28,171 bases of DNA from a virus. The position numbers and the translations under genes were made by a program. Shown here piece by piece: positions 9,831 to 27,053 of the stretch (the first letter of the stretch is position 1; the number at the start of each line of letters is the position of its first letter). Under the pieces are notes generated by a model. The model had not been told where the DNA came from. It saw only the letters and a list, made by a program, of their open reading frames with translations, and did no database searches. The stretch lies in UHGV virus genome UHGV-1292719; one strand, 5' to 3'.

Positions 9831-9862
9831 GTTAAAAATCAAAGACAAACTAAATTCACGCC

Positions 9863-9925: not shown

Positions 9926-9966
9926 CCATCAACAGGACGCTGGAAGCCAAACGGAACAGATTGGCA

Positions 9967-10007: not shown

Positions 10008-10117
10008 CCAGAACTTGAGTGGTTTTGGGGATGGCGCGAATTGCAGCTGCAAGACAGCGATCGAGAAGATAAGCACCTCGACGCGTCATGCGCCAAAGCC
10101 ACTTAAAGGAGACCATC

Positions 10118-10423: not shown

Positions 10424-10425
10424 GT

Positions 10426-10764: not shown

Positions 10765-10786
10765 CCCACTTCGGTGGGTTTTTTAT
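10764..10786 (+). terminator. rho-independent terminator (UUCG tetraloop hairpin plus T-run)
   Basis: CCCAC-TTCG-GTGGG followed by TTTTTTATT. Confidence 0.7.
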
Positions 10787-10903
10787 TGTCTGAACTAACC
10801 GAATTTATTACAGCAAGCCACGCAGTGAAATGGGTGTGACTTGTGTTGGTCGCCAGAAGCAACGCGGAAAATCAATTCCAGCTTATTACGATTGAGGTGA
10901 GCC

Positions 10904-11041
10904 ATGCTCAAGAAAGTCAAACGCCGACTTTACAAAGAAGGTAGATATTCATGCCAGTTGCCAAAATGCGACACAACAAAATGGAGTGTCGATGATTGGT
11001 GTAACTGGATAGATAGATACGGAACTTGGTGGGATAAATAA
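10904..11041 (+). CDS. small cysteine/tryptophan-rich hypothetical protein (45 aa)
   Basis: Hand-translated MLKKVKRRLYKEGRYSCQLPKCDTTKWSVDDWCNWIDRYGTWWDK; GAGGTGA 5 nt upstream of the ATG. Confidence 0.35.
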   Translation: MLKKVKRRLYKEGRYSCQLPKCDTTKWSVDDWCNWIDRYGTWWDK

Positions 11042-11095
11042 CAGGTAACTTAAGCGTATTTACTTTCGCAGCAAACAACTTATTTGAGGTGATAT

Positions 11096-11182
11096 ATGGA
11101 AGAAGAATTTGAAGAGTTCGAAGAGCATCCTCAGGATGTGATGGAACAATACCAGGACTATCCTTATGACTACGACTATTGA
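11096..11182 (+). CDS. acidic 28-aa peptide, lambda orf28-like by position and length
   Basis: MEEEFEEFEEHPQDVMEQYQDYPYDYDY; GAGGTGA upstream; overlaps the ral start by ~17 nt as in lambda. Confidence 0.45.
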   Translation: MEEEFEEFEEHPQDVMEQYQDYPYDYDY

Positions 11183-11366
11183 TAAAAATCAATGGTGTGG
11201 ACAATTCAAGCGATGCAATGGATGCAAGCTGCAATCGGAATGCATGGTTAAGCCTGAAGAAATGTTTCCTGTAATGGAAGATGGGAAATATGTCGATAAA
11301 TGGGCAATACGAACGACGGCAATGATTGCCAGAGAACTTGGTAAACAGAACAACAAAGCTGCCTGA
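11166..11366 (+). CDS. ral: Ral (restriction alleviation) protein
   Basis: 66 aa, MTTTIDKNQWCGQFKRCNGCKLQSECMVKPEE...; matches lambda Ral from memory. Confidence 0.8.
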   Translation: MTTTIDKNQWCGQFKRCNGCKLQSECMVKPEEMFPVMEDGKYVDKWAIRTTAMIARELGKQNNKAA

Positions 11367-11540
11367 TAGTGACCTTTATTTTTGGCACAGAATAAACACT
11401 GCACTGTGTATTCATTCCAACGAGTGAATACACGGAGCAATGTCGCTCGTAACTAAACAGGAGCCGACTTGTTCTGATTATTGGAAATCTTCTTTGCCCT
11501 CCAGTGTGAGGGCGATTTTTTTCTGTGAGGATATGAATAG

Positions 11541-11909
11541 ATGTCAAACATCAAAAAATACATCATTGATTACGACTGGAAAGCATCAATAGAAATTGAA
11601 ATCGACCATGACGTAATGACAGAGAAAAAACTTCACCAGATTAATAATTTCTGGTCAGATTCTGAATACCGACTCAATAAACACGGCTCTGTATTAAATG
11701 CTGTATTAATCATGCTGGCGCAACATGCTCTGCTTATAGCAATTTCAAGCGACTTAAATGCATATGGTGTTGTGTGTGAGTTCGACTGGAATGATGGAAA
11801 TGGTCAGGAAGGATGGCCTCCAATGGATGGTAGCGAAGGAATAAGAATTACCGATATCGATACATCAGGAATATTTGATTCAGATGATATGACTATCAAA
11901 GCCGCCTGA
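11541..11909 (+). CDS. ea10: Ea10-like early protein
   Basis: 122 aa; position between ral and cIII and sequence consistent with lambda Ea10 from memory. Confidence 0.7.
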   Translation: MSNIKKYIIDYDWKASIEIEIDHDVMTEKKLHQINNFWSDSEYRLNKHGSVLNAVLIMLAQHALLIAISSDLNAYGVVCEFDWNDGNGQEGWPPMDGSEGIRITDIDTSGIFDSDDMTIKAA

Positions 11910-11981
11910 GCGCGGCGTTACCGCATACCAATAACGCTTCACTCGAGGCGTTTTTCGTTATGTATAAATAAGGAGCACACC

Positions 11982-12146
11982 ATGCAATATGCCATTGCAG
12001 GGTGGCCTGTTGCTGGCTGCCCTTCCGAATCTTTACTTGAACGAATCACCCGTAAATTACGTGACGGATGGAAACGCCTTATCGACATACTTAATCAGCC
12101 AGGAGTCCCAAAAAATGGATCAAACACTTATGGCTATCCAGACTAA
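11982..12146 (+). CDS. cIII: CIII (FtsH inhibitor)
   Basis: Hand-translated 54 aa [54 protein letters not shown], lambda cIII-like; AAGGAG upstream. Confidence 0.8.
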   Translation: MQYAIAGWPVAGCPSESLLERITRKLRDGWKRLIDILNQPGVPKNGSNTYGYPD

Positions 12147-12258
12147 ATTCACTATCGCCACTTTTATTGGCGATGAAAAGATGTTTCGTGAGGCCGTCGA
12201 CGCTTATAAAAAATGGATATTAATACTGAAACTGAGATCAAGCAAAAGCATTCACTAA
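12115..12258 (+). CDS. kil: Kil (FtsZ inhibitor)
   Basis: 47 aa [47 protein letters not shown], at the end of ORF 11989..12258; overlaps the cIII 3' end. Confidence 0.75.
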
Positions 12259-12629
12259 CCCCCTTTCCTGTTTTCCTAATCAGCCCGGCATTTCGCGGGC
12301 GATATTTTCACAGCTATTTCAGGAGTTCAGCCATGAACGCTTATTACATTCAGGATCGTCTTGAGGCTCAGAGCTGGACGCGTCACTACCAGCAGATCGC
12401 CCGTGAAGAGAAAGAGGCAGAACTGGCAGACGACATGGAAAAAGGTCTTCCACAGCACCTGTTTGAATCACTCTGTATCGATCATTTGCAACGCTGCGGG
12501 GCCAGCAAAAAAGCCATTACCCGTGCGTTTGATGACGATGTTGAGTTTCAGGAGCGCATGGCAGAACACATCCGGTACATGGTTGAAACCATTGCTCACC
12601 ACCAGTTTGATATTGATTCAGAGGTATAA
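12213..12629 (+). CDS. gam: Gam (RecBCD inhibitor)
   Basis: 138 aa, [36 protein letters not shown]...; lambda Gam-like. Confidence 0.9.
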
Positions 12630-12634
12630 AACGG

Positions 12635-13420
12635 ATGAGTACAGCACTCGCAACGCTGGCAGGGAAGCTGGCTGAACGTGTCGGCATGGATTCTGTCGAC
12701 CCACAGGAACTGATCACCACTCTTCGCCAGACAGCATTTAAAGGCGATGCCAGCGATGCGCAGTTCATCGCATTGTTGATCGTCGCCAACCAGTACGGCC
12801 TTAATCCGTGGACGAAAGAAATTTACGCCTTCCCTGACAAGCAGAACGGCATCGTTCCGGTGGTGGGCGTTGATGGCTGGTCCCGTATCATCAATGAAAA
12901 CCAGCAGTTTGATGGCATGGACTTTGAGCAGGACAATGAATCCTGCACATGCCGGATTTACCGCAAGGACCGTAATCATCCGATCTGCGTTACCGAGTGG
13001 ATGGATGAATGCCGCCGCGAACCATTCAAAACCCGCGAAGGCAGAGAAATCACGGGGCCGTGGCAGTCGCATCCCAAACGGATGTTACGTCATAAAGCCA
13101 TGATTCAGTGTGCCCGTCTGGCCTTCGGATTTGCTGGTATCTATGACAAGGATGAAGCCGAGCGCATTGTCGAAAATACCGCATACACTGCAGAACGTCA
13201 GCCGGAACGCGACATCACTCCGGTTAACGATGAAACCATGCAGGAGATTAACACTCTGCTGATCGCCCTGGATAAAACATGGGATGACGACTTATTGCCG
13301 CTCTGTTCCCAGATATTTCGCCGCGACATTCGCGCATCGTCAGAACTGACACAGGCCGAAGCAGTGAAAGCTCTTGGATTCCTGAAACAGAAAGCCACTG
13401 AGCAGAAGGTGGCAGCATGA
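12635..13420 (+). CDS. bet: Bet (Red-beta single-strand annealing protein)
   Basis: 261 aa, [38 protein letters not shown]...; lambda Bet-like. Confidence 0.9.
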
Positions 13421-14097
13421 CACCGGACATTATCCTGCAGCGTACCGGGATCGACGTGAGAGCTGTCGAACAGGGGGATGATGCATGGCACAAATTACGG
13501 CTCGGCGTCATCACCGCTTCAGAAGTTCACAACGTGATAGCAAAGCCCCGCTCAGGAAAGAAGTGGCCTGACATGAAAATGTCCTACTTCCACACCCTGC
13601 TGGCTGAGGTTTGCACCGGTGTGGCTCCGGAAGTTAATGCTAAGGCGCTGGCCTGGGGAAAACAGTACGAGAACGACGCCAGAACCCTGTTTGAATTCAC
13701 TTCCGGCGTGAATGTTACTGAATCCCCGATCATCTATCGCGACGAAAGTATGCGCACCGCCTGCTCTCCCGATGGTTTATGCAGTGACGGCAACGGCCTT
13801 GAACTGAAATGCCCGTTTACCTCCCGGGATTTCATGAAGTTCCGGCTCGGTGGTTTCGAGGCCATAAAATCGGCTTACATGGCCCAGGTGCAGTACAGCA
13901 TGTGGGTGACGCGAAAAGATGCCTGGTACTTTGCCAACTATGACCCGCGTATGAAGCGTGAAGGCCTGCATTATGTCGTGATTGAGCGGAATGAAAAGTA
14001 CATGGCGAATTTTGACGAGATGGTGCCGGAGTTCATCGAAAAAATGGACGTGGCACTGGCTGAAATTGGTTTTGTATTTGGGGAGCAATGGCGATGA
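13417..14097 (+). CDS. exo: Exo (lambda exonuclease)
   Basis: 226 aa, [40 protein letters not shown]...; lambda Exo-like; overlaps the bet stop. Confidence 0.9.
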
Positions 14098-14255
14098 AGC
14101 ATCCTCACGATAATATCCGGGTAGGCGCGATCACTTTCATCTACTCCGTTACAAAGCGAGGCTGGGTATTTCCCGGCCTTTCTGTTATCAGAAATCCACT
14201 GAAAGCACAGCGGCTGGCTGAGGCGATAAATAATAAACGGGGGCTGTATGACTGA
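14094..14255 (+). CDS. small exo-xis region protein (53 aa)
   Basis: ATG overlaps the exo stop; [53 protein letters not shown]; 3' end overlaps the methyltransferase start. Confidence 0.4.
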
Positions 14256-14805
14256 TTTCACCGGAAGCAATACTCCTGCCGAACATCGCGACAGCTGGCG
14301 CACACCACCAGAGATTTTTGCTGCGCTTAATGCAGAGTTCGTTTTTCAACTTGATGCTGCCGCCAGCGAAAAAAACCGACTATGTCGGCTTTTTATCTCA
14401 CAGGAGCAGAACACATTAACCACTTCATGGCCTGAAGCAATGGGATATGCCTCTGGTTATGTCTGGTTGAATCCACCATACAGCAATATTTCCCCTTTTG
14501 TGAAAAAGGCAGCCACTGAAAACAAATTCAGTAGTGTGGGATGTGTAATGTTATTGCCTGCTGACACATCTGTCGGATGGTTTCATGAAGCGATACAAAC
14601 CGCCAGTGAGGTCAGATTCATCACGGCAGGACGACTGGCATTTATTAACCCACTCACTGAGAAACCCGTCAGTGGAAATAATAAAGGCTCGATGCTCATT
14701 ATCTGGCACCCATACCCCCGTACACACTGCCACTTTACGACCGTTGATCGTGGAGAGTTGATGGCGTTCGGCTCAAGGATTCTTGCCCGTCGGGAGGCTG
14801 CATGA
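14248..14805 (+). CDS. orphan DNA N6-adenine methyltransferase (phage Dam-like)
   Basis: 185 aa with the NPPY catalytic motif (YVWLNPPYSN); no adjacent restriction endonuclease gene. Confidence 0.8.
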   Translation: MTDFTGSNTPAEHRDSWRTPPEIFAALNAEFVFQLDAAASEKNRLCRLFISQEQNTLTTSWPEAMGYASGYVWLNPPYSNISPFVKKAATENKFSSVGCVMLLPADTSVGWFHEAIQTASEVRFITAGRLAFINPLTEKPVSGNNKGSMLIIWHPYPRTHCHFTTVDRGELMAFGSRILARREAA

Positions 14806-14885
14806 CAACCACGGAATGCATTTTTCTGGCAGCGGGCTTCATATTCTGTGTGCTTATGCTTGCCGACATGGGACTTGTTCAATGA
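14802..14885 (+). CDS. small hydrophobic peptide (27 aa), translationally coupled
   Basis: MTTTECIFLAAGFIFCVLMLADMGLVQ; ATGA overlaps at both ends. Confidence 0.3.
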   Translation: MTTTECIFLAAGFIFCVLMLADMGLVQ

Positions 14886-15097
14886 CACCTCAGCAGGAAA
14901 ACGCCCTTCGCAGCATTGCCCGTCAGGCTAATTCTGAAATCAAAAAAGCCAGACAGCAGTTTCCGGATAAAAACGTCGATGACATTTGCCGTAGCGTACT
15001 TAAGAAGCACCGCGAAACGGTAACGCTGATGGGATTCACACCGACTCATTTAAGCCTGGCGATCGGCATGTTAAACGGCGTCTTTAAGGAACGGTGA
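14882..15097 (+). CDS. hypothetical protein (71 aa)
   Basis: In-frame ATG inside ORF 14783..15097 that overlaps the upstream stop: MTPQQENALRSIARQANSEIKKARQQFPDKNVDD... Confidence 0.45.
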   Translation: MTPQQENALRSIARQANSEIKKARQQFPDKNVDDICRSVLKKHRETVTLMGFTPTHLSLAIGMLNGVFKER

Positions 15098-15195
15098 ACA
15101 TGAAAAGCAAAATCATCAGGGAGCTACAGGCTCCTTTTTTATTGTTCGCATTCATCCTCAAGCGTATTAACCAACAATTCAGGGATTAATGGAAG

Positions 15196-15414
15196 ATGGC
15201 AGACATCATTGATTCAGCATCAGAAATCGAAGAATTACAGCGCAATACAGCAATAAAAATGCGTCGTCAGAACTACCAGACTGTATCCGCAACTCATTGT
15301 TGTGAGTGTGGCGATCCGATAGATGAGCGAAGACGCCTGGCTGTTCAGGGTTGTCGGACTTGTGCAAGTTGCCAGGAGGAGATCGAACTTAAGAACAAAC
15401 AATGGGGACTGTGA
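15196..15414 (+). CDS. DksA/TraR-family C4 zinc-finger protein
   Basis: 72 aa with CCECG...CRTCASC (CxxC-17-CxxC). Confidence 0.7.
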   Translation: MADIIDSASEIEELQRNTAIKMRRQNYQTVSATHCCECGDPIDERRRLAVQGCRTCASCQEEIELKNKQWGL

Positions 15415-15461
15415 TGGCCTCAAAGCAGCAAATTTCAACATCGTCCAACTGAGGTGTAAAA

Positions 15462-15740
15462 ATGTTCAGAATCATTTTTCCTAACACCTGGTACGTCGAC
15501 CACCACGGCACTCCCTGCAAAATCCTGCGTTCTACCCACAACAAAGTTCACTACATCCGAAAAGGCAGAACATGTATCGCCAGCATGTTCCGCTTTAATC
15601 ATGACTTTGAACCTGTGAATAAAGCTGATGCAGATCGGATAGCAGAAGAGATCGAAACGGCAGAACACATTAAGAAGTTACGTGACATGCGTTCAAAAAG
15701 CAGAGGTAACCATGGAATCATACAGCCTCACACTCGATGA
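15462..15740 (+). CDS. hypothetical prophage protein (92 aa)
   Basis: ORF directly upstream of xis; no recognised motif. Confidence 0.5.
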   Translation: MFRIIFPNTWYVDHHGTPCKILRSTHNKVHYIRKGRTCIASMFRFNHDFEPVNKADADRIAEEIETAEHIKKLRDMRSKSRGNHGIIQPHTR

Positions 15741-16062
15741 GGCCTGTCAGTTTCTTAAGATATCCAGACCAACCGCCACCAACTGGATACGAACAGGCCG
15801 CCTACAGGCAACACGTAAAGATCCAACCAAGCCAAAATCTCCTTACCTCACAACACGGCAAGCCTGCATTGCGGCGCTTCAGTCTCCGCTGCATACTGTC
15901 CAGGTGAGCGCGGGTGATGGCATAACAGAGGAAAGAAAATGTCACTCTTCCGCAGAAGTGAAATATGGTACGCCAGTTTCACATTGCCGAACGGTAAAAG
16001 ATTTAAACAGTCTCTTGGAACAAAGGACAAAAGGCAGGCGACAGAGCTCCATGACAAGCTAA
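15712..16062 (+). CDS. xis: excisionase, P22 Xis-like
   Basis: From [37 protein letters not shown]... (HTH-like), ~116 aa; overlaps the int 5' end. Confidence 0.6.
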
Positions 16063-17102
16063 AGGCTGAAGCATGGCGGGTCAGCAAACTTGGTGAAATA
16101 CCTGATATAACGTTCGAGGAAGCGTGTGTCAGGTGGCTTGAAGAGAAAGCACATAAAAAATCACTGGACGATGACAAAAGCCGGATCGGATTCTGGCTTC
16201 AACATTTCGCAGGAATGCAACTAAGAAACATTACTGAATCAAAAATTTATTCAGCAATGCAGAAAATGACGAACCGGCGTCATGAGGAAAACTGGAAACT
16301 CAGGGCAGAAGCATGCAGAAAAAAAGGGAAACCTGTTCCAGAATACACGCCAAAACCAGCGTCCGTTGCAACGAAGGCGACGCATCTTTCATTTATAAAG
16401 GCCCTGCTAAGAGCCGCAGAGCGTGAATGGAAAATGCTCGATAAGGCACCAATTATTAAAGTGCCTCAACCAAAGAATAAACGGATCCGCTGGCTGGAGC
16501 CCCATGAAGCACAAAGGCTGATTGATGAATGTCCGGAGCCATTAAAGTCTGTTGTTGAATTTGCACTGGCAACAGGCTTAAGACGCTCGAACATCATCAA
16601 CCTTGAATGGCAACAAATAGATATGCAGCGCCGGGTGGCATGGATAAACCCGGAAGAGAGTAAATCAAACCGCGCAATTGGCGTTGCGCTGAATGATACT
16701 GCATGTCGCGTATTGAAAAAACAAATCGGGAATCATCACCGTTGGGTATTTGTGTACAAGGAAAGCTGTACCAAACCAGACGGAACGAAAGCGCCAACAG
16801 TAAGGAAGATGCGGTATGACGCAAACACAGCCTGGAAAGCGGCGCTGAGACGGGCTGGTATTGATGATTTCAGATTTCACGACTTGAGACACACCTGGGC
16901 AAGTTGGCTGGTTCAAGCCGGAGTCCCGTTGTCAGTGTTACAGGAAATGGGAGGCTGGGAGTCTATCGAAATGGTTCGTCGATATGCTCACCTTGCACCT
17001 AATCACCTTACCGAACACGCACGGCAAATAGACTCGATCCTGAACCCATCCGTCCCAAATTTGTCCCAGTCAAAAAATAAGGAAGGTACTAATGATGTGT
17101 AA
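15939..17102 (+). CDS. int: tyrosine integrase, P22 / thrW-targeting family
   Basis: 387 aa; C-terminal catalytic motifs [10 protein letters not shown] and MVRRYAHL (R-H-R-Y tyrosine recombinase signature); ends 14 bp before the att core. Confidence 0.9.
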
Positions 17103-17116
17103 CTTATTGATTTAAA

Positions 17117-17162
17117 TGGTGCCGATAATAGGAGTCGAACCTACGACCTTCGCATTACGAAT
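17117..17162 (-). other. attachment-site core: 46-bp copy of the 3' end of tRNA-Thr (thrW-type), not a complete tRNA
   Basis: Minus strand reads ATTCGTAATGCGAAGGTCGTAGGTTCGACTCCTATTATCGGCACCA (anticodon-stem 3' half, T-arm, acceptor 3' strand, CCA); sequence 5' of it (CTTATA...) does not continue the tRNA. Confidence 0.75.
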
Positions 17163-17608
17163 TATAAGAATCCGCTTCTAATTCAAAGCATTACCCCATC
17201 AACACTGCGCTCACACGTCCCACCACATCAAAACATGTAAAGCCTTGCAAGCCATTGTGAGGCCTTTTGTGTCTCAGTTTTGTCCCATCCGCGCTTGTGT
17301 TTTCTTTCATACATACACAATAATATAAATTAAAATAATAAACTATGAAACTAATGTGTCTTTCATCAACAACATGGTAACAATGCTTATTATAACATTG
17401 TGTAATTATCATTTTTTCCGAGCATTGTGTGAAATTCATACCGATTTGTTGCAAAAAAAAATTACAAGTAAAATGTTTTTAAAATGTAATTTTGGAGGAA
17501 AAGACAAGTCTACTAACCACCTGTTAATACAATTAATCATGAATATATTTCTTTAGCCCCGAGATATTAATTAATTAGTTGTTCATCGCTTTATATACTG
17601 GTTTCATT

Positions 17609-19810
17609 ATGCTTAATAAAAAAACAATTGCTGTGTTAATAGCTTCTACAATTCCAACAACAGCTTTAGCCGCATCATTTACTCAAAATATTGCAAAAGG
17701 AACAGAAGTCAGCAATGAGGTTATTGATGGTAAGCAGTCCGTTTATGGTAATATTACAAATAGTATGATTACTACTGGCGGGCATCAATACATTTACTCT
17801 GGAGGAGCAGCTTCTGATATTATTCTTAATGGTGGTAAAAGCACTGTAAATAACGCCGACATCAAAAATTTCAAAATAATAAACGGAATTCAGGCCTTAA
17901 ATACTGGTGCTATATCTTATTCCGCAGAAATAACTGGAACGGGTATCCAGCGTGTAAATGATGGTGCTAAATCAGCTTATAGCACATTAGCCAATGGTGG
18001 TCGACAGTATATAAATTCTGGTGGAAAGTCAGAAAACACCACTATTGAAAGTGGTGGGAGTCTTTATACTTACGCTAACGGTGAGTCCCTCAACACTACT
18101 GTCAATGATGGGGCGTTCTTTGTTAGAGGGGGGACTGCAACTAATAGCGTTATTAATGGTGGTAAACAAGTAGTAACCGAAGGAGGGATCACTACTGGTG
18201 ACATTATCAATGACGGTGGTTATCAAAATATTGGTGTAAATGGTTCTGCCTTTAATGTTGTAGTTAATAAAGGCGGCCGTCAAGATATTAATACTGGCGG
18301 CTATGCAAAAGATACAACCATCATTGGTGGACAATATGATATAGATCCAGAGGCAACTGGTGAAAATGTAAGTTTTGACGGTGGTTTAGGTTTTGTTCGT
18401 GAAACTGGAATTTTAACTGGCTATGCCACTCTAAAAAACGGTGCTGAAATTTATATGGCTGAGGGTTCTGATGCAGATATTTCACTATCTAGTCAGAGCA
18501 AGCTTTATGTTGTTAATGATATTACAAATAGCAACATGACACTGGATAACTCATCTGTTTATTTCCGTTCTTCTTTTGATGGTGAATTATCAACAAATTT
18601 AAAAGAATTTAAAACTCTGAACGTCAATAAACTAAACGCCAATAACTCCTCGTTCTTTATGAAAGTTGAAGGTATGAATGGCGATTTTCTTAATATTTCC
18701 GAGTTTTCTGGCGATAACAACACAGTTAGCATTAATGGTAGCGGTAAAGAAAGCAGTGATGGATATCATCTGATTCACGCTGGTAATAGTAGTGTTGATG
18801 CTTTTAAATTAGACGGTGGCAAAGTTGAACTTGGCTCATATGTCTATACATTAGAAAAAAATAATGATGACTGGTATTTAAGACAGCATGCTGATCAACT
18901 TTCATCCTCAGCAAAAACTGTTCTTTCAATGGCATCTTATGCATCTTCAATATTTACAAATGAATTTCATACTATCTCTGATAGATTGAATAATAGTTTG
19001 ACCGATATTGAAGGGAATCATCTTTGGGGAAGATTTATCAGCTCTGATTATCGTGTTAATAATGGTGTGAATGAACCATATAAACTTACACAAAATGGTT
19101 TTGAGTATGGATTAGGCAAAACCATTTCAAAAGAACATGGCGATTTTAGTTTTGGTATCTCCGCTGGTATTACCCAAAACAAAATAAAAGAAAAATCTGG
19201 GACTCGTTCTGATGTTGACAGTTACTCAGTTGGTTTATACGGTTCCTATATCCACAAAAACGGATTCTACATTGATGGATTAATCAAAGGAAACCGATTT
19301 GATAACACTACGGAGATTATCATTGATTCGTCCGACATTGCTACTGCTAATTTTAAACAAACTGGCTTTGGTTCTGCATTAGAATTTGGCAAATATACTT
19401 GGTTTGATAATTCATTTGTTACTCCATATGTACGAACAGAATACTTCATGGCCAACAATGAAGAAGTTAAGATTAGCAATGGAATGAAGGCTGATTTGGG
19501 CAATGACAGATCATTGAAAGGAGAAGCCGGGGTTAAATTAGGGACAAACTTAAATGTTTGGCAAAACACTAATATTACTCCATACTTAAAAGTATCACTT
19601 GAACACGAATTCATTGATGACAACTATATTAAGATCAATGACAGTGTAAAAATTAACAATGATAACTCGGGAACCATCGGGAATTATAGTTTAGGCCTTG
19701 ATGCTAAGATGGGCAAAAATGCATCTTTTTATTCTGAGCTTGGTTACTCTAAAGGTTCAAACATCGAGGTTCCATTCAACGTAAAAGCTGGTGTTCGAGT
19801 CCTCTTTTAA
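17609..19810 (+). CDS. autotransporter (type Va) adhesin-like protein: signal peptide, repetitive beta-helical passenger, C-terminal beta-barrel
   Basis: ORF 17579..19810 trimmed to MLNKKTIAVLIASTIPTTALAA; repeated ~19-aa GG-x-Q-x-I-x-GG-x-A-x-T-I motifs; C-terminus ends ...NVKAGVRVLF; AT-rich codon usage. Confidence 0.85.
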   Translation: MLNKKTIAVLIASTIPTTALAASFTQNIAKGTEVSNEVIDGKQSVYGNITNSMITTGGHQYIYSGGAASDIILNGGKSTVNNADIKNFKIINGIQALNTGAISYSAEITGTGIQRVNDGAKSAYSTLANGGRQYINSGGKSENTTIESGGSLYTYANGESLNTTVNDGAFFVRGGTATNSVINGGKQVVTEGGITTGDIINDGGYQNIGVNGSAFNVVVNKGGRQDINTGGYAKDTTIIGGQYDIDPEATGENVSFDGGLGFVRETGILTGYATLKNGAEIYMAEGSDADISLSSQSKLYVVNDITNSNMTLDNSSVYFRSSFDGELSTNLKEFKTLNVNKLNANNSSFFMKVEGMNGDFLNISEFSGDNNTVSINGSGKESSDGYHLIHAGNSSVDAFKLDGGKVELGSYVYTLEKNNDDWYLRQHADQLSSSAKTVLSMASYASSIFTNEFHTISDRLNNSLTDIEGNHLWGRFISSDYRVNNGVNEPYKLTQNGFEYGLGKTISKEHGDFSFGISAGITQNKIKEKSGTRSDVDSYSVGLYGSYIHKNGFYIDGLIKGNRFDNTTEIIIDSSDIATANFKQTGFGSALEFGKYTWFDNSFVTPYVRTEYFMANNEEVKISNGMKADLGNDRSLKGEAGVKLGTNLNVWQNTNITPYLKVSLEHEFIDDNYIKINDSVKINNDNSGTIGNYSLGLDAKMGKNASFYSELGYSKGSNIEVPFNVKAGVRVLF

Positions 19811-19826
19811 TATTCAATAATGTTAC

Positions 19827-19858
19827 CCTGTACGCCCATTATTAATTGGGCGTACAGG
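19827..19858 (+). terminator. long perfect hairpin downstream of the autotransporter gene
   Basis: CCTGTACGCCC-ATTATTAATT-GGGCGTACAGG (11-bp stem); only a weak T-tract follows. Confidence 0.45.
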
Positions 19859-19940
19859 CCTCTCATTACATTTTAATATTTAAATTCAATTCAAAATTCA
19901 CATCATAATCTATTAATTATTAAACATTAACATTCTTACA

Positions 19941-20429
19941 TCAAATCAAGCATCGCACTCTGAAGCAAGTAGCCATCTGCCTGCTTCCTTTGATCTGCGA
20001 GAAGTTTGTGGCAGTGATCACCAATCCCCCCTGTGCGCGAGCAGCTTTCAGTCCAGCTTTTGTTCGTTCAACAATCAGTTCACGCTCCATTTCAGCCAGA
20101 GCACCCATCACATGAAAGAAAAAGCGTCCCATTGAGGTACTGGTATCAATTGAATCCGTCAGACTACGAAAGTTGATGCCTCGTTCGCGCAACTCCTCCA
20201 CCAGCACGACAAGATGCCGCATACTGCGCCCCAGCCGATCCAGCTTCCAGACAACCAGAGTGTCACCTTCCGATAATGTCCTGAGCAGTTTTTTCAATCC
20301 CGGCCTTTCGGACTTTGTACCGCTTATCTTGTCTTCAAAAATCAGCTCGCATCCTGCACAGTTCAGCGCATTACGTTGTAGATCTGTGTTCTGGTCATTT
20401 GTTGACACACGTACATAGCCAATAAGCAT
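19941..20429 (-). pseudogene. pin: Din-family serine invertase (Pin/Gin/Hin-like), catalytic domain intact, C-terminal HTH domain lost
   Basis: MLIGYVRVSTNDQNTDLQRNALNCAGCELIFEDKISG...VERTKAGL is a typical resolvase/invertase catalytic domain; after ARAQG the frame diverges at a C6/G6 homopolymer (20036-20041) and ends in unrelated sequence at the junction with the AT-rich islet. Confidence 0.7.
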
Positions 20430-20455
20430 GGTAGATCTCCCTGACAAAAGCAGGG

Positions 20456-21007
20456 ATGATGCCATTTGCTCGTTATTTCTACATTTTCATAAACGTTGGT
20501 TTGGGAGAAGGCTCTGCATTACCTGTTGGGGTGCCTGTTCCGTGGCCTTCAGCCACTCCGCCAACAGGCTGGCTGAAATGCAACGGAGCAGCTTTTTCTG
20601 CTGAAGAATACCCGGAGCTGGCAAAGGCTTACCCGACAAATAAATTGCCTGATTTACGTGGTGAGTTTATTCGTGGCTGGGATGACGGACGTGGTATGGA
20701 TACGGGGAGGGCAATATTATCCGCTCAGGGCGATGCCATACGTAATATCTATGGTGAGTTCAAGACTGTAAACACCGAAAATTATTCAATATGGGAATCA
20801 GTAGGCTCTTTTAAGGGGGCAGTGGTGCCTTTGAACCCCTCAACGAACAATAGTTATTTCTCCTTAATCAGAAGTATGGTGACAGAAAGAACAGATGGCG
20901 CTGTTTACCCAAAAGTGATTGGCCTTGATGCTTCAAGAATTGTTCCAACTGCAAACGAAAACCGTCCTCGTAACATTGCCTTTAATTATATCGTGAGGGC
21001 TGCCTGA
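20456..21007 (+). CDS. alternative tail-fibre C-terminal segment (Sv'-type) inside the invertible segment; silent in this orientation
   Basis: ORF has no credible own start; from the crossover site it encodes ...NVGLGEGSALPVG..., and the expressed fibre on the other strand encodes ...[11 protein letters not shown] at the matching site. Confidence 0.6.
   Translation: MMPFARYFYIFINVGLGEGSALPVGVPVPWPSATPPTGWLKCNGAAFSAEEYPELAKAYPTNKLPDLRGEFIRGWDDGRGMDTGRAILSAQGDAIRNIYGEFKTVNTENYSIWESVGSFKGAVVPLNPSTNNSYFSLIRSMVTERTDGAVYPKVIGLDASRIVPTANENRPRNIAFNYIVRAA
20484..20509. repeat. left recombination site (hix/gix-like) of the invertible segment
   Basis: Core AAACG-TT-GGTTT; 15-bp perfect inverted repeat TTGGTTTGGGAGAAG shared with 22368-22382. 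Confidence 0.55.
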
Positions 21008-21609
21008 TGAATAAAGCCGTATTAAATAACGAACTCATTGCCATAAAAGCGGGAGTCATTACCATTTATAATTATGATGGTGAAACGCGGGAGTATATTT
21101 CCACATCAACTGAATATCTTGCGGTTGGCGTCGGTATCCCGGCATGTTCTTGTTTAGATGCACCAGTTACACATAAAGCTGGTTATGCAATCTGCCGTTC
21201 TGCAGATTTTAACTCATGGGAATATGTGCCAGACCATCGCGGTGAAATCATCTATAGCACCGAAACAGGAGAATCGAAAGAAATCACAGCTCCGGGTGAT
21301 TATCCTGAAAATACAACCACTATCGCCCCGTTAACGCCATACGATAAATGGGATGGTGAGAAATGGGTGACGGATACCGAGGCACAGCATAGCGCCGCAG
21401 TAGAAGCGGCAGAAGCACAGCGCCAGTCGCTGATTGATGCTGCAATGGCTTCCATCAGTCTGATTCAGCTGAAATTACAGGCCGGGCGGAAGCTGACGCA
21501 GCCAGAAAACACCCGACTTAACGCTGTGCTGGATTATATTGACGCGGTGACGGCAACAGATACCAGCACAGCGCCAGACGTCATCTGGCCTGAACTGCCG
21601 GAGGCGTAG
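21007..21609 (+). CDS. tfa: tail fibre assembly protein (chaperone) paired with the silent fibre segment
   Basis: 200 aa; conserved C-terminal chaperone region ...DYIDAVTATDTSTAPDVIWPELP. Confidence 0.8.
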   Translation: MNKAVLNNELIAIKAGVITIYNYDGETREYISTSTEYLAVGVGIPACSCLDAPVTHKAGYAICRSADFNSWEYVPDHRGEIIYSTETGESKEITAPGDYPENTTTIAPLTPYDKWDGEKWVTDTEAQHSAAVEAAEAQRQSLIDAAMASISLIQLKLQAGRKLTQPENTRLNAVLDYIDAVTATDTSTAPDVIWPELPEA

Positions 21610-22021
21610 GCCATTCAATATCTGGCGCACCGGAAGTATCGACCAGTTCCAGTGCGTCCAGATAATCCAGCCACAAATTATATTGCGCCAGTTCCCCACC
21701 TTTCAGGCGACCAATCGCCGCTTTACCAGGCCATTGCTTACTGTTTATGTATTCGTTGACCTGATTAATCAATTGCTGCTTTTCCAATTCGGCTGCGGCA
21801 ATTTGTTCCTCATGAGTTGGCGGTGGAATATCAATCCATGCAGGCATTCCGTCGATGACACCTCTGTATTTTCCTTCTGGTGCTTCCTTCATAAATTCGG
21901 CGGCAACAGTGTCGTCAATTTCGATTCCATCACCGGGCCATTCGCCGGATTCCTGATAAGCGATTTTAAGCTCCACAGGGAAAAACGCATTTTTATCGGC
22001 ACTGAAAATATATTTCTGCAT
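21581..22021 (-). CDS. tfa: tail fibre assembly protein (chaperone) for the expressed fibre
   Basis: 146 aa; C-terminus ...LWLDYLDALELVDTSGAPDIEWPTPP parallels the plus-strand copy. Confidence 0.8.
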   Translation of the reverse strand: MQKYIFSADKNAFFPVELKIAYQESGEWPGDGIEIDDTVAAEFMKEAPEGKYRGVIDGMPAWIDIPPPTHEEQIAAAELEKQQLINQVNEYINSKQWPGKAAIGRLKGGELAQYNLWLDYLDALELVDTSGAPDIEWPTPPAVQAR

Positions 22022-22023
22022 TT

Positions 22024-22737
22024 CTACCGTCCTATCGAAATATAACTGAATCTGTATTGCTGTGAGATATCACTGGTTGCCACACGCCACGCTGAATTAC
22101 TGATATGTTCAAAATTTACAGACAAAACCTGCGGGGCAGGATTCGACGGGTCTGACTGAACGGCATCAGACATAACACTGACTGAAACCATCGGCTGATT
22201 AGGGAATGGTATAGGGAAGTGTCCACTGATAAAGCGGGTCGTGTTTCCTGAAAAAGTGCCAAACTGAACAATATATCCACCTGGTAGCCTGAACCATCCC
22301 GAACCAGAAGCGAATGCTCCCATATCCGGTATCTGATTATCTCCTGTGCCCACATCCCTTTTCGCCGCTTCTCCCAAACCAAGGTTTTCGAGAGCCGTTT
22401 TCACCGTGCCATCCGATTTGATATCGCCAAACGGATTCTTGCGGCTCAGGTATTCAACAGCAAACCCCGATCCCAGCAATTCAACAAAACCGGGCAGATC
22501 ACCATTATCAAGCACATCCCGTTGCGTTTTGTCACTTACAAACTGGGCCAGAGCTGCAGCAATAAAGCTGGCCTGCCGAATAACCTTATTGACTTGCGCA
22601 CTGGATGCTTTCCCTGCTGTAAATCCGGATAAAAGCGCAGGCAACGCTTCCCATTCCTCCTGCGACATAACATTGGCATTCCGATCAGTTGCAAACGCTT
22701 TAAAGTCATTTTTCGCCATCAGAGTAATACTCCCCAT
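22024..22737 (-). CDS. tail fibre protein (constant N-terminal part fused to the currently expressed variable C-terminal part)
   Basis: 237 aa; N-terminal [27 protein letters not shown]...[23 protein letters not shown] is typical of Mu S / e14 Stf-type fibres; crossover site lies inside the gene. Confidence 0.75.
22369..22394. repeat. right recombination site (hix/gix-like) of the invertible segment, inside the tail-fibre gene
   Basis: Palindromic core AAACC-AA-GGTTT (plus strand 22376-22387); inverted copy of the left site. Confidence 0.55.
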
Positions 22738-23399
22738 GCCCCTACATCAAAACCACTGATGAATTCGTTATCCATATCAAAACCAAAAAATTTTGAACCT
22801 TCCGATGGAGTTTCCACCGAAGGTGTTTCAATGCCACCCGCCCAAACCCCGGCGGCTTTTACTGTGAGATATCCCTGTTTAATTGCAGCAATTAACTCAC
22901 GCGATACATCTGAAATATCAGTATCAGGAAAGAGCCAGACCGATATCGTCATGTCCTGGTTATCGACTATCTGCATTCGCAGTCCGGATCCTGCTGTCGC
23001 CGCGTCAAGAATTGCTGGAAGCGAATCATTCCGTCCGTCCCAGTTATTAATCGCAATCTTCGCTTTAAGGATGACACGATAAGTTTCATCGCTGAGGTAC
23101 ATGTATCCGGAATCAGGATCGTATGGCCCCTGCCATACACCCTGATCATATCCAAGCCCGTCGGTATCCCAGCTGAAATACACACCTGAGATAGGCTGGC
23201 TGACAACACGGCTACGTCCGATCCACAATCCCAGAATGTCAAGTTGCACACCAACCGCAGAGTCAATATCAAATGCAGTAATCAGCCCTCTGGTGGCAGC
23301 CGCAACATCAATAAGTGGCCGGGTCATCAGATCAACATGCGCAAGAAATTTAGGTTTGGTGGCGTGGTAGTTCGTGATTAGTTCGGTGTATTTGCTCAT
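22719..23399 (-). CDS. phage tail protein (Mu gp48 / e14 YmfQ-like)
   Basis: 226 aa between the baseplate J-like gene and the tail fibre, overlapping both; order matches Mu-type baseplate clusters. Confidence 0.6.
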
Positions 23400-24595
23400 G
23401 ACTCCACCGTTATAACGATATTTTCCGGGGTACAGGACGCAGATTCGTTGTATCTGATATCAATGTTTGATGACGACAAAGCCCCCGGGGATTTCCCAAT
23501 CGTCAGTTCCTGAATATCGTAATAGCGTGCATTCCCGCCACTCACCACGCCAAGATTCGCCGGTGAGTAAATGCGACTTAAAAGGACCGAATCACCAATC
23601 GTCAGACTATTGATATAGTCGGAAATAGCCTGCTGGATCTGCTGCCCTATCTGTGAGGTATAACCCGTAAAAACTTTTAATTTAATCAGGGCATAAACAG
23701 GCACATCACTGGAACGCGAGAATTTGATTACATGGGGATTGCCGTATTTATCCGGAACCGTAACGGATGTTGTACCGTGAGTGGCTGTCCCCTGGCCTTT
23801 ATTCCCTCTGATAGCCTGAGCAATATCCGTTACATCACCGCCATCCACAATTACAGCAACAGAGTGTGGCGGTAACCCGTTACCGTCCTCCGAACCAGTA
23901 TCGTTTTCATAGAGTTTGTGGCGGGTTACACCGGTAACATTAGAAACAGCACCATCCAGTGCTTCAAATGGGGTTATTGATGGCAACGCAACACTTTGCG
24001 ACTGGCGGATACGTAACTCAGCGTCAGTTTCTGCCGGAGTGCCCACAGTAGCCGCAGCAGGATTAGTTACCGAAACCCAGCCACGGGTTGGCGTATTAAT
24101 TTCAGTGATAGTTCCAGCCAGCGCCGCCACTGCACCACTGACGGAACATGTTGCGGTCACCATCACTGTACCATCCACTCCGACCACCACTGAAGCAGGC
24201 AAACGCCATATCACATTATTACTGTCTTTCACGCTGCCATTAATGATGGTTGTTCCGGCAGTTCCTGTAAGAAGCAAATCAACCGTAGAATTCGTCGCGC
24301 CTCTACGTGAAATACCATTTATTTTCACGTTACTGGTCAGTGAGGCCCCATAGCCGGTTGCTGGTGAAAAACAGTTGTAGACAGTTATCGCCATATTATT
24401 GGCATCATGAATTGCCAGCGCCATCAGAGCCACCATCTGACCGTCTTTACTGTCCGGTTCGAGGTAGGCATCACTACCATAAATCTGCTGAAAATAGCTA
24501 ATCAGGGTGCTGAGTATCGTCTGATAATCAGGCGCACTGATCCCCTCCGCGGTTACCTTTGCAGATAAACCGAGAGAATCAAGGTTCAGAGCCAT
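23396..24595 (-). CDS. baseplate J-like protein (Mu gp47 family)
   Basis: 399 aa; size and position (W-like, J-like, I-like, fibre) typical of Mu/P2-type baseplate modules. Confidence 0.75.
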   Translation of the reverse strand: MALNLDSLGLSAKVTAEGISAPDYQTILSTLISYFQQIYGSDAYLEPDSKDGQMVALMALAIHDANNMAITVYNCFSPATGYGASLTSNVKINGISRRGATNSTVDLLLTGTAGTTIINGSVKDSNNVIWRLPASVVVGVDGTVMVTATCSVSGAVAALAGTITEINTPTRGWVSVTNPAAATVGTPAETDAELRIRQSQSVALPSITPFEALDGAVSNVTGVTRHKLYENDTGSEDGNGLPPHSVAVIVDGGDVTDIAQAIRGNKGQGTATHGTTSVTVPDKYGNPHVIKFSRSSDVPVYALIKLKVFTGYTSQIGQQIQQAISDYINSLTIGDSVLLSRIYSPANLGVVSGGNARYYDIQELTIGKSPGALSSSNIDIRYNESASCTPENIVITVES

Positions 24596-24948
24596 TACGC
24601 CTCCGATGTAACAGTCGTTATTCCATAAAGAGTGTCGATTTCAGCGGAAAACATGACACGTCGGGTCGTGGTATCCACCGTCGTATTGAAAGAGAGGATT
24701 GATTTAACGCCCCGCGTTTCAAGGATGCGCTTACGGATCGCCAGGTTGTAGGTTTCCGGCTTCTGCTTACCGAGTACGGACTGGATCCACGGAATCCCCT
24801 CGGTGGTGTCGAGAAACCATTGCCCATACCACAATTCGAATCGCGTTTTTACCGCCTGCGCCACGGCCTCCGGTGAGTTAATCAGCCAGGTGTCATCACC
24901 GCTGCCAAAGGTGTAATCGCCATCGGCGTCTTCACGTCTGTATCGCAT
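24595..24948 (-). CDS. small baseplate protein (W / gp25-like, tentative)
   Basis: 117 aa directly upstream of and overlapping the J-like gene. Confidence 0.5.
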   Translation of the reverse strand: MRYRREDADGDYTFGSGDDTWLINSPEAVAQAVKTRFELWYGQWFLDTTEGIPWIQSVLGKQKPETYNLAIRKRILETRGVKSILSFNTTVDTTTRRVMFSAEIDTLYGITTVTSEA

Positions 24949-25721
24949 CAGTTTACTCCGTCGGTATTGCTTCCACCGCGCTGAACACCACCATGAGTGT
25001 GCGTATCATCGATTGGCTTGCCGTTAGCCTTCACGCTACCCAAAAACTCAACAGCACCAGTGATTTTTGAAGCCACACCAGAAACAACAGACCCCACCAT
25101 GCCTCCCATCCAGGTTAACAGGCCATGAATGGTTACTTTCTCAGAAAAATCAGCCAGAGGGGCAACCACATCAAGCCCCCCCGGAGCGACAATTTTAATT
25201 TTCCTGGTATCAGGATTAAGCTCAAAATAGGTGCTGCCGTCGTCACTACGCAACTGTGTGGCACTGGTATTAATACCGCTAATCTTCCTTGCCTGCGACT
25301 GGGGACCGACAATACAAAACGCATCCGATAAATCATGCATTCGATCATCGACCGGCTCCTGTATCCCGCCACTCTGCCACCAGAAATCAATACAACGATC
25401 GGCAAAAATCACCAGGCATTCATCGCCGGCTTCCACCGGGAAAGTTAACGTGCAGCCGCCGCCGCGCGGGAATACCACTGGCACATCCACCAGCAATGGG
25501 TAATTTTGGGTAATGCGGTTGCCGTCATTATCCTTTTCAACCGAACGGATCGCAGGCTGCACAACCGCTGTCACCGCATCAGGATCGAATGACTGGACGA
25601 TGCCAGGCAAAGCAACACGGATCTGGTTCTTTGTTGTGTCCCGCTCTGATTTGAATGTTTCGGCAAGGTCGCCGCTGCGGGTCGGGTCAGATAATGCCAT
25701 TTGGTAGGCTCCAGAAAGCAA
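24948..25721 (-). CDS. baseplate spike / assembly protein V-like (Mu gp45 family, tentative)
   Basis: 257 aa with glycine-rich C-terminus (GGMVGSVVSGVASKITGAVEFLGS...HTHGGVQRGG); upstream of the W-like gene. Confidence 0.55.
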   Translation of the reverse strand: MLSGAYQMALSDPTRSGDLAETFKSERDTTKNQIRVALPGIVQSFDPDAVTAVVQPAIRSVEKDNDGNRITQNYPLLVDVPVVFPRGGGCTLTFPVEAGDECLVIFADRCIDFWWQSGGIQEPVDDRMHDLSDAFCIVGPQSQARKISGINTSATQLRSDDGSTYFELNPDTRKIKIVAPGGLDVVAPLADFSEKVTIHGLLTWMGGMVGSVVSGVASKITGAVEFLGSVKANGKPIDDTHTHGGVQRGGSNTDGVN

Positions 25722-25746
25722 AAAACCCGCCGGGTGGCGGGTTTTA
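25720..25746 (-). terminator. rho-independent terminator (bidirectional hairpin) after the two-gene cargo operon
   Basis: AAAAAA-CCCGCC-GGGT-GGCGGG-TTTT; A-run and T-run flank a 6-bp GC stem. Confidence 0.7.
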
Positions 25747-25763
25747 TTAATTACTTAATAGGC

Positions 25764-26186
25764 TTAACTTGCAGTTTTTTTAGTATCAATCATACCAGCA
25801 ATAAGTGACTGCAAATCCTCTGCATCCTTGATGGTACTACAAGCATCAATCCGATTAACGTGCTTATCAAGATTATAATCAGCAATGACTCTTCGGTGAT
25901 GCGCGGTTTTGAGCTTAAGCCCAACCTTTTTGGCAGAAGTTCGGTCAAGACTATGTGCTAGAGCTGCATTCTCGCCGCAAAGATATTCAGAAAGCCTCGC
26001 ATGTACCCCACCGGGTAACTTTTGCCCTTTCTCATCTTGAGTTGGGATATAGCCATCCGTGAGCAATAACGCTGAATGATACATCGTATAATACGCTCTA
26101 CTTATCGCATTACGCGTCCACTGTTCACCGCTATTCTCAATAGAGCTTTTAGCCATCTCCAGAAAGCAGTTAATCGCTACAGGCAT
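25764..26186 (-). CDS. HEPN-like protein (140 aa), tentative
   Basis: N-terminal helix AISRAYYTMYHSALLLTDG resembles the conserved first helix of HEPN domains and contains an R-x6-H spacing; start overlaps the upstream stop. Confidence 0.55.
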   Translation of the reverse strand: MPVAINCFLEMAKSSIENSGEQWTRNAISRAYYTMYHSALLLTDGYIPTQDEKGQKLPGGVHARLSEYLCGENAALAHSLDRTSAKKVGLKLKTAHHRRVIADYNLDKHVNRIDACSTIKDAEDLQSLIAGMIDTKKTAS

Positions 26187-26917
26187 CAGTTCACCGCCTC
26201 AAAGTAAGCGACACTGCATCCCGTTTCTAGACCTCTTTCAATCATCTCATCAACGACCTTATCGTTAAGATATGAAAGATACTCTGCGTCTTCAGTTTCG
26301 ATGCCAACAGAAAAAGAACCATAACCCTCACCATCGGTAAGCAGACTGGAGGTTTTAGCACGGAGTGATTCGCTTTCCACAATGTACATCAATACATCTG
26401 CAGCTTTTTTCAAACCGTCACTCATTGGACCGCCTAAGTTGCTCAAAACTACAGCGGTTTCCAATGCAGATACATGCTTTTCTTTTTCAGTTTGACCAAA
26501 TTTCTCAAGCTTAGCGATAGCCATATCGAGAATCTCCCCATCAGCCCAGAAGGCCGCAAAATTTAAACCATGTTCGGCCATGCAGGGGAAGTCGTAGTCG
26601 AGAGCCCGAGTAAGCAACTCTCGCCGTTTAGAGTAAAGCCCAAGGTTGCTTAGTGCGCTAGAATAATTGTTCCAAGTAACAGGATCTGTCGGGCATATGG
26701 CTAGAGATGTCTCAATCGCCTCGATACCTCGCTCCACTTTGCCATCCAGCAACAGAATCAGCCCTTCAAGTGCTAGAGATTGATACCTTATAGGTAAAGC
26801 ACGGGCATCTCTCAACAACTTCTGTTTTTCAAGGTCAAGAAGCAAGATTCTTCCTGCTTCCAAGGATGGACCAAGCTTAGCGACGACTTCTCCAGTTTTT
26901 GGTTGCGCTACTGGCAT
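26186..26917 (-). CDS. alpha-helical repeat (TPR-like) protein (243 aa), tentative
   Basis: Repeated amphipathic helix pairs with W/L/G/Y/A spacing (e.g. WNNYSSALSNLGLYSKRRELLTRALDYDF); acidic C-terminus; first gene of a two-gene operon after a 136-bp intergenic region. Confidence 0.55.
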   Translation of the reverse strand: MPVAQPKTGEVVAKLGPSLEAGRILLLDLEKQKLLRDARALPIRYQSLALEGLILLLDGKVERGIEAIETSLAICPTDPVTWNNYSSALSNLGLYSKRRELLTRALDYDFPCMAEHGLNFAAFWADGEILDMAIAKLEKFGQTEKEKHVSALETAVVLSNLGGPMSDGLKKAADVLMYIVESESLRAKTSSLLTDGEGYGSFSVGIETEDAEYLSYLNDKVVDEMIERGLETGCSVAYFEAVN

Positions 26918-27053
26918 AAGGTGCTTTTACTCTTCTTAGTCATTTTGTAGTCGACGTAGTTTAAACAAGTATTAGCTGCAAGCAACAACTTTGTAAAACC
27001 ACACAGGTAGATTAGATGTAAATTTCATCCAAGTACCTAACCAGAAAGAAAGT

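Follow-up and report, generated by a model that had tools for sequence, protein, structure and literature searches.

An AIDA-type autotransporter gene in the attP-proximal cargo slot of a thrW-integrating lambdoid phage of Escherichia coli

The DNA considered here is a stretch of 28,171 nt from virus genome UHGV-1292719, hereafter the window, and its source is a temperate Escherichia coli phage of the thrW-integrating lambdoid SfI/SfV/e14 type. Positions 17290-19940 of the window hold an AT-rich segment with an intact open reading frame (ORF) for a type Va autotransporter of 733 amino acids (17609..19810, plus strand; ATG at 17609, stop codon ending at 19810). A TTG at 17579, which a mechanical ORF list gave as the start, is not the annotated start, and ATG 17609 was used. 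No other ORF with a protein-family match was found in 17163-19978, and the neighbouring genes are the phage integrase gene (int) and the remnant of a DNA invertase gene. The segment is a cargo gene in a variable slot of the temperate phage, not an islet inserted beside its attachment (att) site.

The protein begins with a signal peptide (residues 1-21, 17609-17671), read straight from the sequence as MLNKKTIAVLIASTIPTTALA/ASF, which shows two lysines, a hydrophobic core, and ALA/A at residues 19-22; in the structural model, residues 1-23 have low confidence and include a short helix. The signal peptide is followed by a beta-helix passenger with AIDA-type repeats and a pertactin-like junction (residues 22-431, 17672-18901), a helical linker (residues 433-463, 18905-18997), and a 12-strand barrel (residues 469-733, 19013-19807) with the C-terminus ...VRVLF and the terminal aromatic residue F733. 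Pfam matches were obtained to the Autotransporter beta-domain (PF03797, 2.5e-41), AIDA repeats (PF16168, 5e-17), and Pertactin (8e-15), and NCBIfam matches to TIGR01414 at 4e-76 and to the heptosylation-target repeat model TIGR04415 (2e-22) in 4 stretches. Sequence matches in PDB included TibA (5e-27), an AIDA-family adhesin (1e-20), and Ag43 (8e-20). AlphaFold, given an alignment of 17 sequences, returned a model with a mean predicted local distance difference test score (pLDDT) of 89.1 and a predicted template modelling score (pTM) of 0.74, in which residues 26-431 form a beta-helix, residues 433-463 are helical, and residues 469-732 contain 12 long strands. Foldseek comparison of this model returned Ag43 (E 1e-17), TibA55-350 (template modelling score [TM] normalized to the target 0.82, 30% identity), the BrkA beta-domain (TM 0.92), EspP (TM 0.82-0.86), and the AIDA-I transport unit.

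By sequence and predicted fold, the protein is a type Va autotransporter of the AIDA/Ag43/TibA type. Scores against the curated families were far under the cut-offs for AIDA-I (NF033176, 86 bits vs 1200) and Ag43 (NF033177, 63 bits vs 1200), as also for BafA, and the protein is therefore taken as a separate, short AIDA-type member and as the orthologue of neither AIDA-I nor Ag43. No tandem repeats were found in the passenger at the DNA level, so that its repeats exist at the protein level only, and no enzymatic domain was found in the protein. An earlier examination of the letters without database searches (the sequence-only reading) had described an AIDA-like autotransporter with a signal peptide, a repetitive passenger, and a C-terminal barrel ending in VRVLF; the Pfam, NCBIfam, PDB, and fold comparisons uphold this description, and the barrel profile search that it had proposed gave the PF03797 and TIGR01414 matches listed above.

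The G+C content of 17290-19940 is 34.3%, compared with 47.0% for the left flank (1-17112) and 48.6% for the right flank (19979-28171), and 2651-nt windows taken outside this segment had a minimum of 41.1% and a mean of 47.5% (standard deviation 2.4). Values for the parts are 26.6% in the upstream non-coding DNA (17290-17608), 35.9% in the coding sequence (CDS), and 26.2% in the downstream non-coding DNA (19811-19940), and a sliding-window plot showed a trough over about 17250-19950. G+C at third codon positions (GC3) is 26% in the autotransporter CDS vs 37-63% in twelve other genes of the window. Both edges are sharp in 100-nt windows, with a fall from 51% to 21% G+C between 17200 and 17300 and a rise from 36% to 55% between 19900 and 19950, where the jump lies at approximately 19945. 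No repeats or insertion sequence (IS) ends were seen at 17290 or at 19940-19980, by eye and by a repeat search near the right end that was not exhaustive. The AT-rich stretch of about 2.8 kb that had been noted by eye, and its difference from the flanks, are thus confirmed by calculation. Its interval had been given as 17163-19940, which holds for 17290-19940; the first 127 nt (17163-17289, 44% G+C) are an attP arm of Sf type.

This conserved attP arm on the cargo side (17163..17289, plus strand) is 95-98% identical to its counterparts in SfIV, SfII, SfI, and SfV, which blastn against a phage collection found annotated as attP or terminator, and 2698 of 5426 complete E. coli genomes contain it. 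On both grounds it is assigned to the phage att site and not to the islet. The arm, which ends at 17289, and the invertase/tail-fibre module form the bounds of the slot. A four-way alignment was made of SfI, the window, L001 (an autotransporter locus next to host flanking DNA), and L006 (an E. coli locus with other cargo); the sequences are the same up to 17289 and diverge by cargo type from 17290. SfI carries gtrA-gtrB-gtrI there, transcribed away from attP, and the autotransporter gene has the same position, orientation, and left boundary. The slot of L006 (1182-5897) contains a gene for a RES-family NAD+ phosphorylase and genes for hypothetical proteins, that of O157:H7 strain 2-6-2 (L018, 6128-9158) an IS fragment and genes for an AraC regulator and a LEM-3-like GIY-YIG protein, and that of an avian pathogenic E. 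coli (APEC) O78 (L019, 6128-10557) a gene for a TrlF-family AAA ATPase. Five different slot contents therefore share the left boundary at 17289/17290, and three of them are bounded on the right by the invertase 3' end. The segment had previously been described as an islet wedged between the att core and a broken invertase; the location was correct, and it is better read as the phage cargo slot, at the position of gtrABI in SfI.

In the other E. coli genomes, the slot was observed to hold defence- or toxin-like genes (RES-family, TrlF-family, GIY-YIG). On the far side of the core, O157:H7 also carries a tandem P4-like satellite, which includes an ABC-three-component system.

To the right of the cargo lies the remnant of a serine invertase of the Din family (Pin/Fin) (19979..20429, minus strand), comprising codons 1 to ~151 of 184, with a frameshift near codon 134 and without the helix-turn-helix. 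The ORF at 19941-20465(-) matched the Resolvase N-terminal domain (PF00239, 8.6e-51) and the DNA invertases of phrog_125 (6.5e-79), and no C-terminal DNA-binding domain was found in it by Pfam. Compared with the intact pinE of L006, the remnant has 91-100% DNA identity over codons 1-133, and homology is lost at position 19979 (codon ~151/184), by which the helix-turn-helix is gone. The 168 nt from the autotransporter stop codon to 19979 were not significantly similar to either the pinE 3' end or the DNA downstream of it. A continuation of the invertase in decayed form to its stop codon, hinted at by MAFFT, was rejected, since scores of local alignments between 19811-19978 and the 3' end of pinE fell within the distribution from shuffled sequences. 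The last ~60 nt of the remnant (within 19979-20060) were observed to be far more diverged from pinE than the rest, with ~13 mismatches plus indels in 50 nt vs 0-6% elsewhere; local decay or a different source allele could account for this.

Truncation of the invertase gene accompanies the autotransporter gene in all loci compared. All four annotated autotransporter loci (L001, L002 from strain PSS-11, L004, and L005) are flagged in RefSeq as 'frameshifted; incomplete; missing C-terminus', and a 721-nt query spanning the junction aligned over 98-100% of its length in 25 of 25 matching genomes. The labels 'pinE' and 'recombinase family protein' in L004 and L005 suggested an intact invertase beside the autotransporter; both entries are flagged as frameshifted and incomplete. 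No autotransporter locus with an intact invertase was found. L006, O157:H7, and APEC O78, which have the same core and arm and other cargo, carry an intact 555-nt pinE (184 codons) followed by the invertible tail-fibre module.

Between the AT-rich DNA and the invertase homology is a junction zone of 38 nt (19941..19978, no strand assigned) that is nearly identical in all autotransporter loci examined. Compared with the window, L001, L002, L004, and L005 show only a handful of differences in the cargo segment and in the ~150 nt of remnant next to it; differences cluster at 20100-20500, where they reach 20 per 100 nt in L005. Because the differences avoid the junction, the junction is read as one haplotype of single origin, with recombination breakpoints in the invertase 5' half; the alignments suggest a junction that arose once and was followed by later recombination. 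The tail modules on the right also differ, being of the ymfQ/gp47/GP46 type in L002, L004, and L005 and of the DUF2612/baseplate-J type in the window, as would be expected if homologous recombination had moved the cassette from one backbone to another. Acquisition of the gene with loss of the 3' end of the invertase gene (~33 codons), as a cargo swap inside a phage, is supported. The sequence-only reading had placed the right edge of the AT-rich DNA where the invertase breaks off and had proposed that the insertion inactivated the invertase. The composition jump at ~19945 agrees with the first point, with the correction that invertase homology stops at 19979. As to the second, related genomes did not yield the opposing case of the autotransporter beside an intact invertase, truncation is always linked to the gene, and three of three loci with other cargo have the invertase intact; the event is better described as cargo replacement.

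The tail-fibre switch module (20456..22737, no strand assigned; Pfam Collar and Caudo_TAP, PHROG tail-fibre families) comprises an expressed fibre gene (22024-22737, minus strand) with its chaperone gene (21581-22021, minus strand) and a silent alternative fibre C-terminus (20456-21007, plus strand) with its own chaperone gene (21007-21609, plus strand). The invertible segment is bounded by a left crossover site (20491..20509, minus strand, TTCTCCCAAACCAACGTTT) and a right crossover site (22369..22387, plus strand, TTCTCCCAAACCAAGGTTT), the latter within the expressed fibre gene, which together form an inverted repeat of 19-20 nt, TTCTCCCAAACCAA(C/G)GTTT, at 20491-20510 and 22368-22387. Through the cargo segment and the remnant, the PSS-11 locus (L002) shares 99.8% identity with the window; in this locus the segment 20491-22387 is inverted (15388-17233) at 95-98% identity, with the flanks in direct orientation. 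Carriers of the autotransporter fall into two classes, those aligned to the end of the query (~20600) and those aligned only to ~20502-20511, which is the crossover site. Since both orientation classes carry the broken invertase, inversion after truncation, in trans, is the simplest reading, and the dead switch implied by the sequence-only reading is doubtful, given a 99.8%-identical locus with the segment inverted. Gin, Cin, Pin, and Hin are known to complement one another, and PSS-11 has a second invertase-like place; the tail-fibre segment probably still flips in trans by the invertase of another prophage.

The cargo gene is preceded by a non-coding leader of ~320 nt (17290..17608, plus strand), defined by its composition (26.6% G+C), which has been kept together with the gene in L001, L002, L004, and L005; two small ORFs in it gave no protein-family match. 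Seventeen nt past the stop codon is a hairpin with a perfect 12-bp stem and an 8-nt loop (19827..19858, plus strand; arms 19827-19838 and 19847-19858), with a folding energy of -26.7 kcal/mol (z = -7.65), which is probably a transcript-end or stabilising hairpin. A hairpin downstream of the gene had been reported from the letters with an 11-bp stem; it is real, and its stem is one of 12 bp.

The autotransporter gene was found in 27 of 5426 complete E. coli genomes (~0.5%), from human, poultry, and food isolates, and 546 sequences belong to its protein cluster at 90% identity. The protein has a small close family: relatives of 74, 64, 59, and 41% identity occur in a few enterics, and identity then drops to ~33% and lower. 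The 74% relative lies between trpA and ompW, in a genome whose housekeeping genes are only ~80% identical to those of E. coli; the 64% relative is beside allantoin-utilisation genes, and the 59% relative, in Citrobacter werkmanii, is beside a PapB-like regulator and IS fragments. These three occupy unrelated chromosomal sites, and their DNA similarity to the window is limited to the CDS (17697-19812). A relative in Providencia alcalifaciens has 61% identity over residues 309-733. The ratio of non-synonymous to synonymous substitution rates (dN/dS) is 0.12 against the 74% orthologue and indicates purifying selection. Allele differences within E. coli were 10 non-synonymous vs 1 synonymous in L004 and 7 vs 0 in L005, all in the passenger half, and are too few to call positive selection. 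Foreign composition and sporadic occurrence (27/5426) bear out the horizontal acquisition that had been proposed for the gene. No specific name for the protein was found in any source, the literature offered nothing specific on such an autotransporter at thrW, whether named or borne on a prophage, and distant blastn with the segment gave no match in a plasmid collection. A 99%-identical copy was also observed on a 3.8-kb contig (L014, DVIU01000229.1) binned to the chicken-gut metagenome-assembled genome (MAG) of Candidatus Scatousia excrementigallinarum; this contig is most likely a mis-binned E. coli fragment.

The remainder of the window gives the phage frame in which the cargo is set. On the left of the slot is a tyrosine integrase gene of P22/Sf type (15939..17102, plus strand; Pfam Phage_integrase, 3.2e-48), the stop codon of which is 14 nt from the att core. 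The core (17117..17162, minus strand) consists of 46 bp equal to the 3' end of tRNA-Thr thrW and matches the core of SfI, SfII, SfV, SfX, and P22 at 46 of 46 positions; that core sequence has been published (PMC3636060), and the same source states that the gtr cluster always adjoins attP, followed by int and xis. ARAGORN found no complete tRNA at the core. The arm contains a terminator-like hairpin, recovered by a terminator scan (17242-17263, then CTTTTGTGTC). Positions 17000-17289 are collinear with the int-attP region of SfI at 97.6% identity, and the window follows the SfI map in reverse, being collinear with it over the lysis genes, tRNA-Asn/Thr, Q, nin, P, O, cII, cro, cI, N, gam/bet/exo, xis, int, and attP; beyond attP, collinearity continues with cargo, tail fibre, and baseplate. 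The int gene, core, arm, and cargo are contiguous across 17102-17290, as in an intact attP, and a simple prophage would split them. The left end of the window (terS, accessory genes, lysis) is 99.3% identical to a prophage at torS in strain SCU-171 (L013), and gene order and sizes at the right end (DUF2612, baseplate J, spike) also match this prophage type. As both ends match one prophage type, the window resembles ~28 kb of a circularly closed phage map of ~42 kb, and either excised or free phage DNA or a tandem lysogen could be its origin.

Two further features of the window were observed away from the slot. Between terS and the lysis genes, at approximately 750-2200, are YodC-family, DUF6953, and S1-family peptidase genes, named after the 99.3%-identical SCU-171 locus, of which the S1-family peptidase gene (1454-2194, minus strand) has a GC3 of 37%; this place looks like a second location of accessory genes in the phage. 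Genes for tRNA-Thr(TGT) and tRNA-Asn(GTT) lie at 4311-4466 on the minus strand, downstream of Q, as in phage 21 and SfI.

The explanation proposed for the locus, in which we have reasonable confidence, is that the autotransporter gene is a lysogenic-conversion ('moron') cargo in the attP-proximal slot and was acquired once, with loss of the 3' end of the invertase gene. After integration, the slot would lie at the prophage end beside the host yagP/pao flank, where the hairpin in the attP arm probably insulates the gene from integrase read-through. Transcription would presumably start from a promoter of its own within the ~320-nt leader and, to argue from other acquired genes of high A+T content, may be silenced by H-NS. 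The predicted product would be exported by Sec by means of the 21-residue signal peptide, its 12-strand barrel would be inserted by BAM, and a beta-helix of ~410 residues with 19-residue rungs of AIDA/TibA/Ag43 type would be displayed at the surface. To judge from its relatives, the activity conferred on the lysogen would most likely be adhesion, cell-cell aggregation, or promotion of biofilm. The cassette would have entered a single time by illegitimate recombination, the right junction removing the last ~33 invertase codons with the helix-turn-helix. Homologous recombination would then have carried it from one phage backbone to another, through the attP arm to its left and through the invertase 5' half and the tail-fibre genes to its right. 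The switch, with both crossover sites, is probably still inverted in trans by the invertases of other prophages.

Several observations weigh against this explanation or parts of it. The gene occurs in no sequenced phage record, a distant blastn search of those records with the segment matched the 127-nt attP arm only, and a scan of IMG/VR with the protein returned no relative, so that carriage by an active, transmissible phage remains putative; some carriers, such as L001, are clearly decayed prophage remnants. A role in adhesion or autoaggregation is one that we infer from family resemblance alone, and no heptosyltransferase gene of the Aah/TibC type adjoins the gene, although the TIGR04415 repeat is matched. 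Promoter-like sites in the leader number 16 vs 13.0 ± 3.8 in shuffled sequences and, as they do not exceed the shuffles, no promoter is claimed. The hairpin at 19827-19858 is followed by no T-tract and, for lack of a T run behind the stem, was not called by the terminator scan. The truncation may have come with the acquisition or by a later deletion. With regard to the switch, a 224-nt patch (20704-20926) is unmatched in the comparison with L002, and the orientation in L002 could in principle have been imported by recombination with another phage.

Three other readings were weighed. The gene might be, rather than phage cargo, a chromosomal islet at the distal end of the thrW island, flanked by integrated elements unrelated to each other, with a lambdoid prophage to its left and remnant tail genes to its right. 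It is indeed found in neither phage nor viral-contig collections, in most carriers (L001) its neighbours are the host yagP'/pao flank and pieces of decayed prophage, and it sits at an att site where tandem elements are common (a P22-like remnant in L002, other integrases in L006 and L018). However, the succession of arm, cargo, invertase, and tail fibre and the left boundary are as in the sequenced SfI, the attP arm is that of the phage and not of the host, and the match of both window ends to a single prophage type places the gene inside an apparently whole phage map; we regard a chromosomal islet as quite improbable. It is less improbable, and still unlikely in our estimate, that the invertase decayed independently, by a frameshift and then a deletion, as the switch can be operated in trans, and that a later deletion brought the edges to coincide. 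The separate frameshift near codon 134 and the dense mismatches in the last ~60 nt point to more than one lesion, and the 38-nt junction zone resembles neither the pinE 3' end nor the DNA beyond it to a significant degree. Against independent decay stand the invariant junction haplotype and a perfect linkage, with 25 of 25 autotransporter loci aligned over the same junction and three of three other-cargo loci intact.

The third reading concerns function and would give the protein another surface role, either serum resistance of the BrkA/Vag8 kind or masking of receptors for superinfection exclusion. The barrel and junction are closest to those of BrkA and Vag8, the slot otherwise holds surface-modifying (gtr) or defence-like genes, and allele differences in E. 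coli are mostly non-synonymous (17 vs 1, L004 and L005 taken together), a small count for such an excess. Both sequence and fold of the passenger nonetheless match TibA (TM 0.82, 30% identity), Ag43, and adhesins of the AIDA family, and enzymatic domains are lacking; we consider such a role unlikely. A wider proposal, to which we give little credence, extends the cargo explanation to an 'adhesin-converting' phage: the slot would serve surface remodelling and defence, the autotransporter would benefit the phage as well, for example by shielding the lysogen from superinfection through cell aggregation or receptor masking, and the host-range switch would depend on the invertases of co-resident prophages.

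The lysogenic-conversion cargo explanation adds a rare and uncharacterised surface protein to the autotransporters of E. coli, and the gene moves as a cassette in the slot that drives serotype conversion in Shigella. If the protein does aggregate cells or adhere, such temperate phages could transfer colonisation traits. The broken invertase together with the variable fibre segment would be a small natural example of a prophage relying on the recombinase of another. Current understanding is not challenged by any of these findings.

Among characterised proteins, the autotransporter resembles Ag43 (flu), TibA, and AIDA-I in its type Va layout, its beta-helix with rungs of ~19 residues, its pertactin-type junction, and its 12-strand barrel. 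It differs from them in a much shorter passenger (~410 residues) and an identity of only 22-30%, and from AIDA-I and TibA also in having no adjacent heptosyltransferase gene (aah/tibC). Autotransporters borne on prophages or islands are known in E. coli, including the immunoglobulin-binding Eib proteins and Eaa in prophages of ECOR-9 and Ag43 in CP4-44. Eib is a trimeric type Vc protein and Eaa is of the serine protease type; unlike both, the present protein is short, AIDA-type, and monomeric.

The slot corresponds to that of the gtrA-gtrB-gtr(type) cassettes of SfI, SfII, SfIV, SfV, and SfX, which follow the same attP arm, are transcribed away from attP, and precede the tail fibres, and the gtr phages share the integrase and thrW core with the window. 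Both cargoes alter the surface of the lysogen (a prediction in the present case), whereas the proteins and their biochemistry are unrelated, and SfI, unlike the window, has no invertase beside its cassette. At the end of e14 (stfE-tfaE-pinE-mcrA-att), an invertible tail-fibre module and Pin likewise precede an AT-rich accessory gene that lies just within the prophage end, and the tail, pinE, and ymfQ genes of the comparison loci bear e14-type names in RefSeq. In e14, integration is in icd by a different integrase, the invertase is intact, and the cargo is a restriction enzyme gene. With the Din systems (Gin/G, Cin/C, Pin/P, Hin/H) the locus has in common the serine-recombinase domain, inverted crossover sites, alternative fibre C-termini with chaperones, and occurrence in both orientations; unlike them, its resident invertase is frameshifted and without the DNA-binding domain, and any inversion must rely on another invertase. 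The locus thus combines known kinds of element, namely phage-borne autotransporters, att-proximal conversion cassettes, and Din inversion, and represents familiar cargo rather than a new mechanism.

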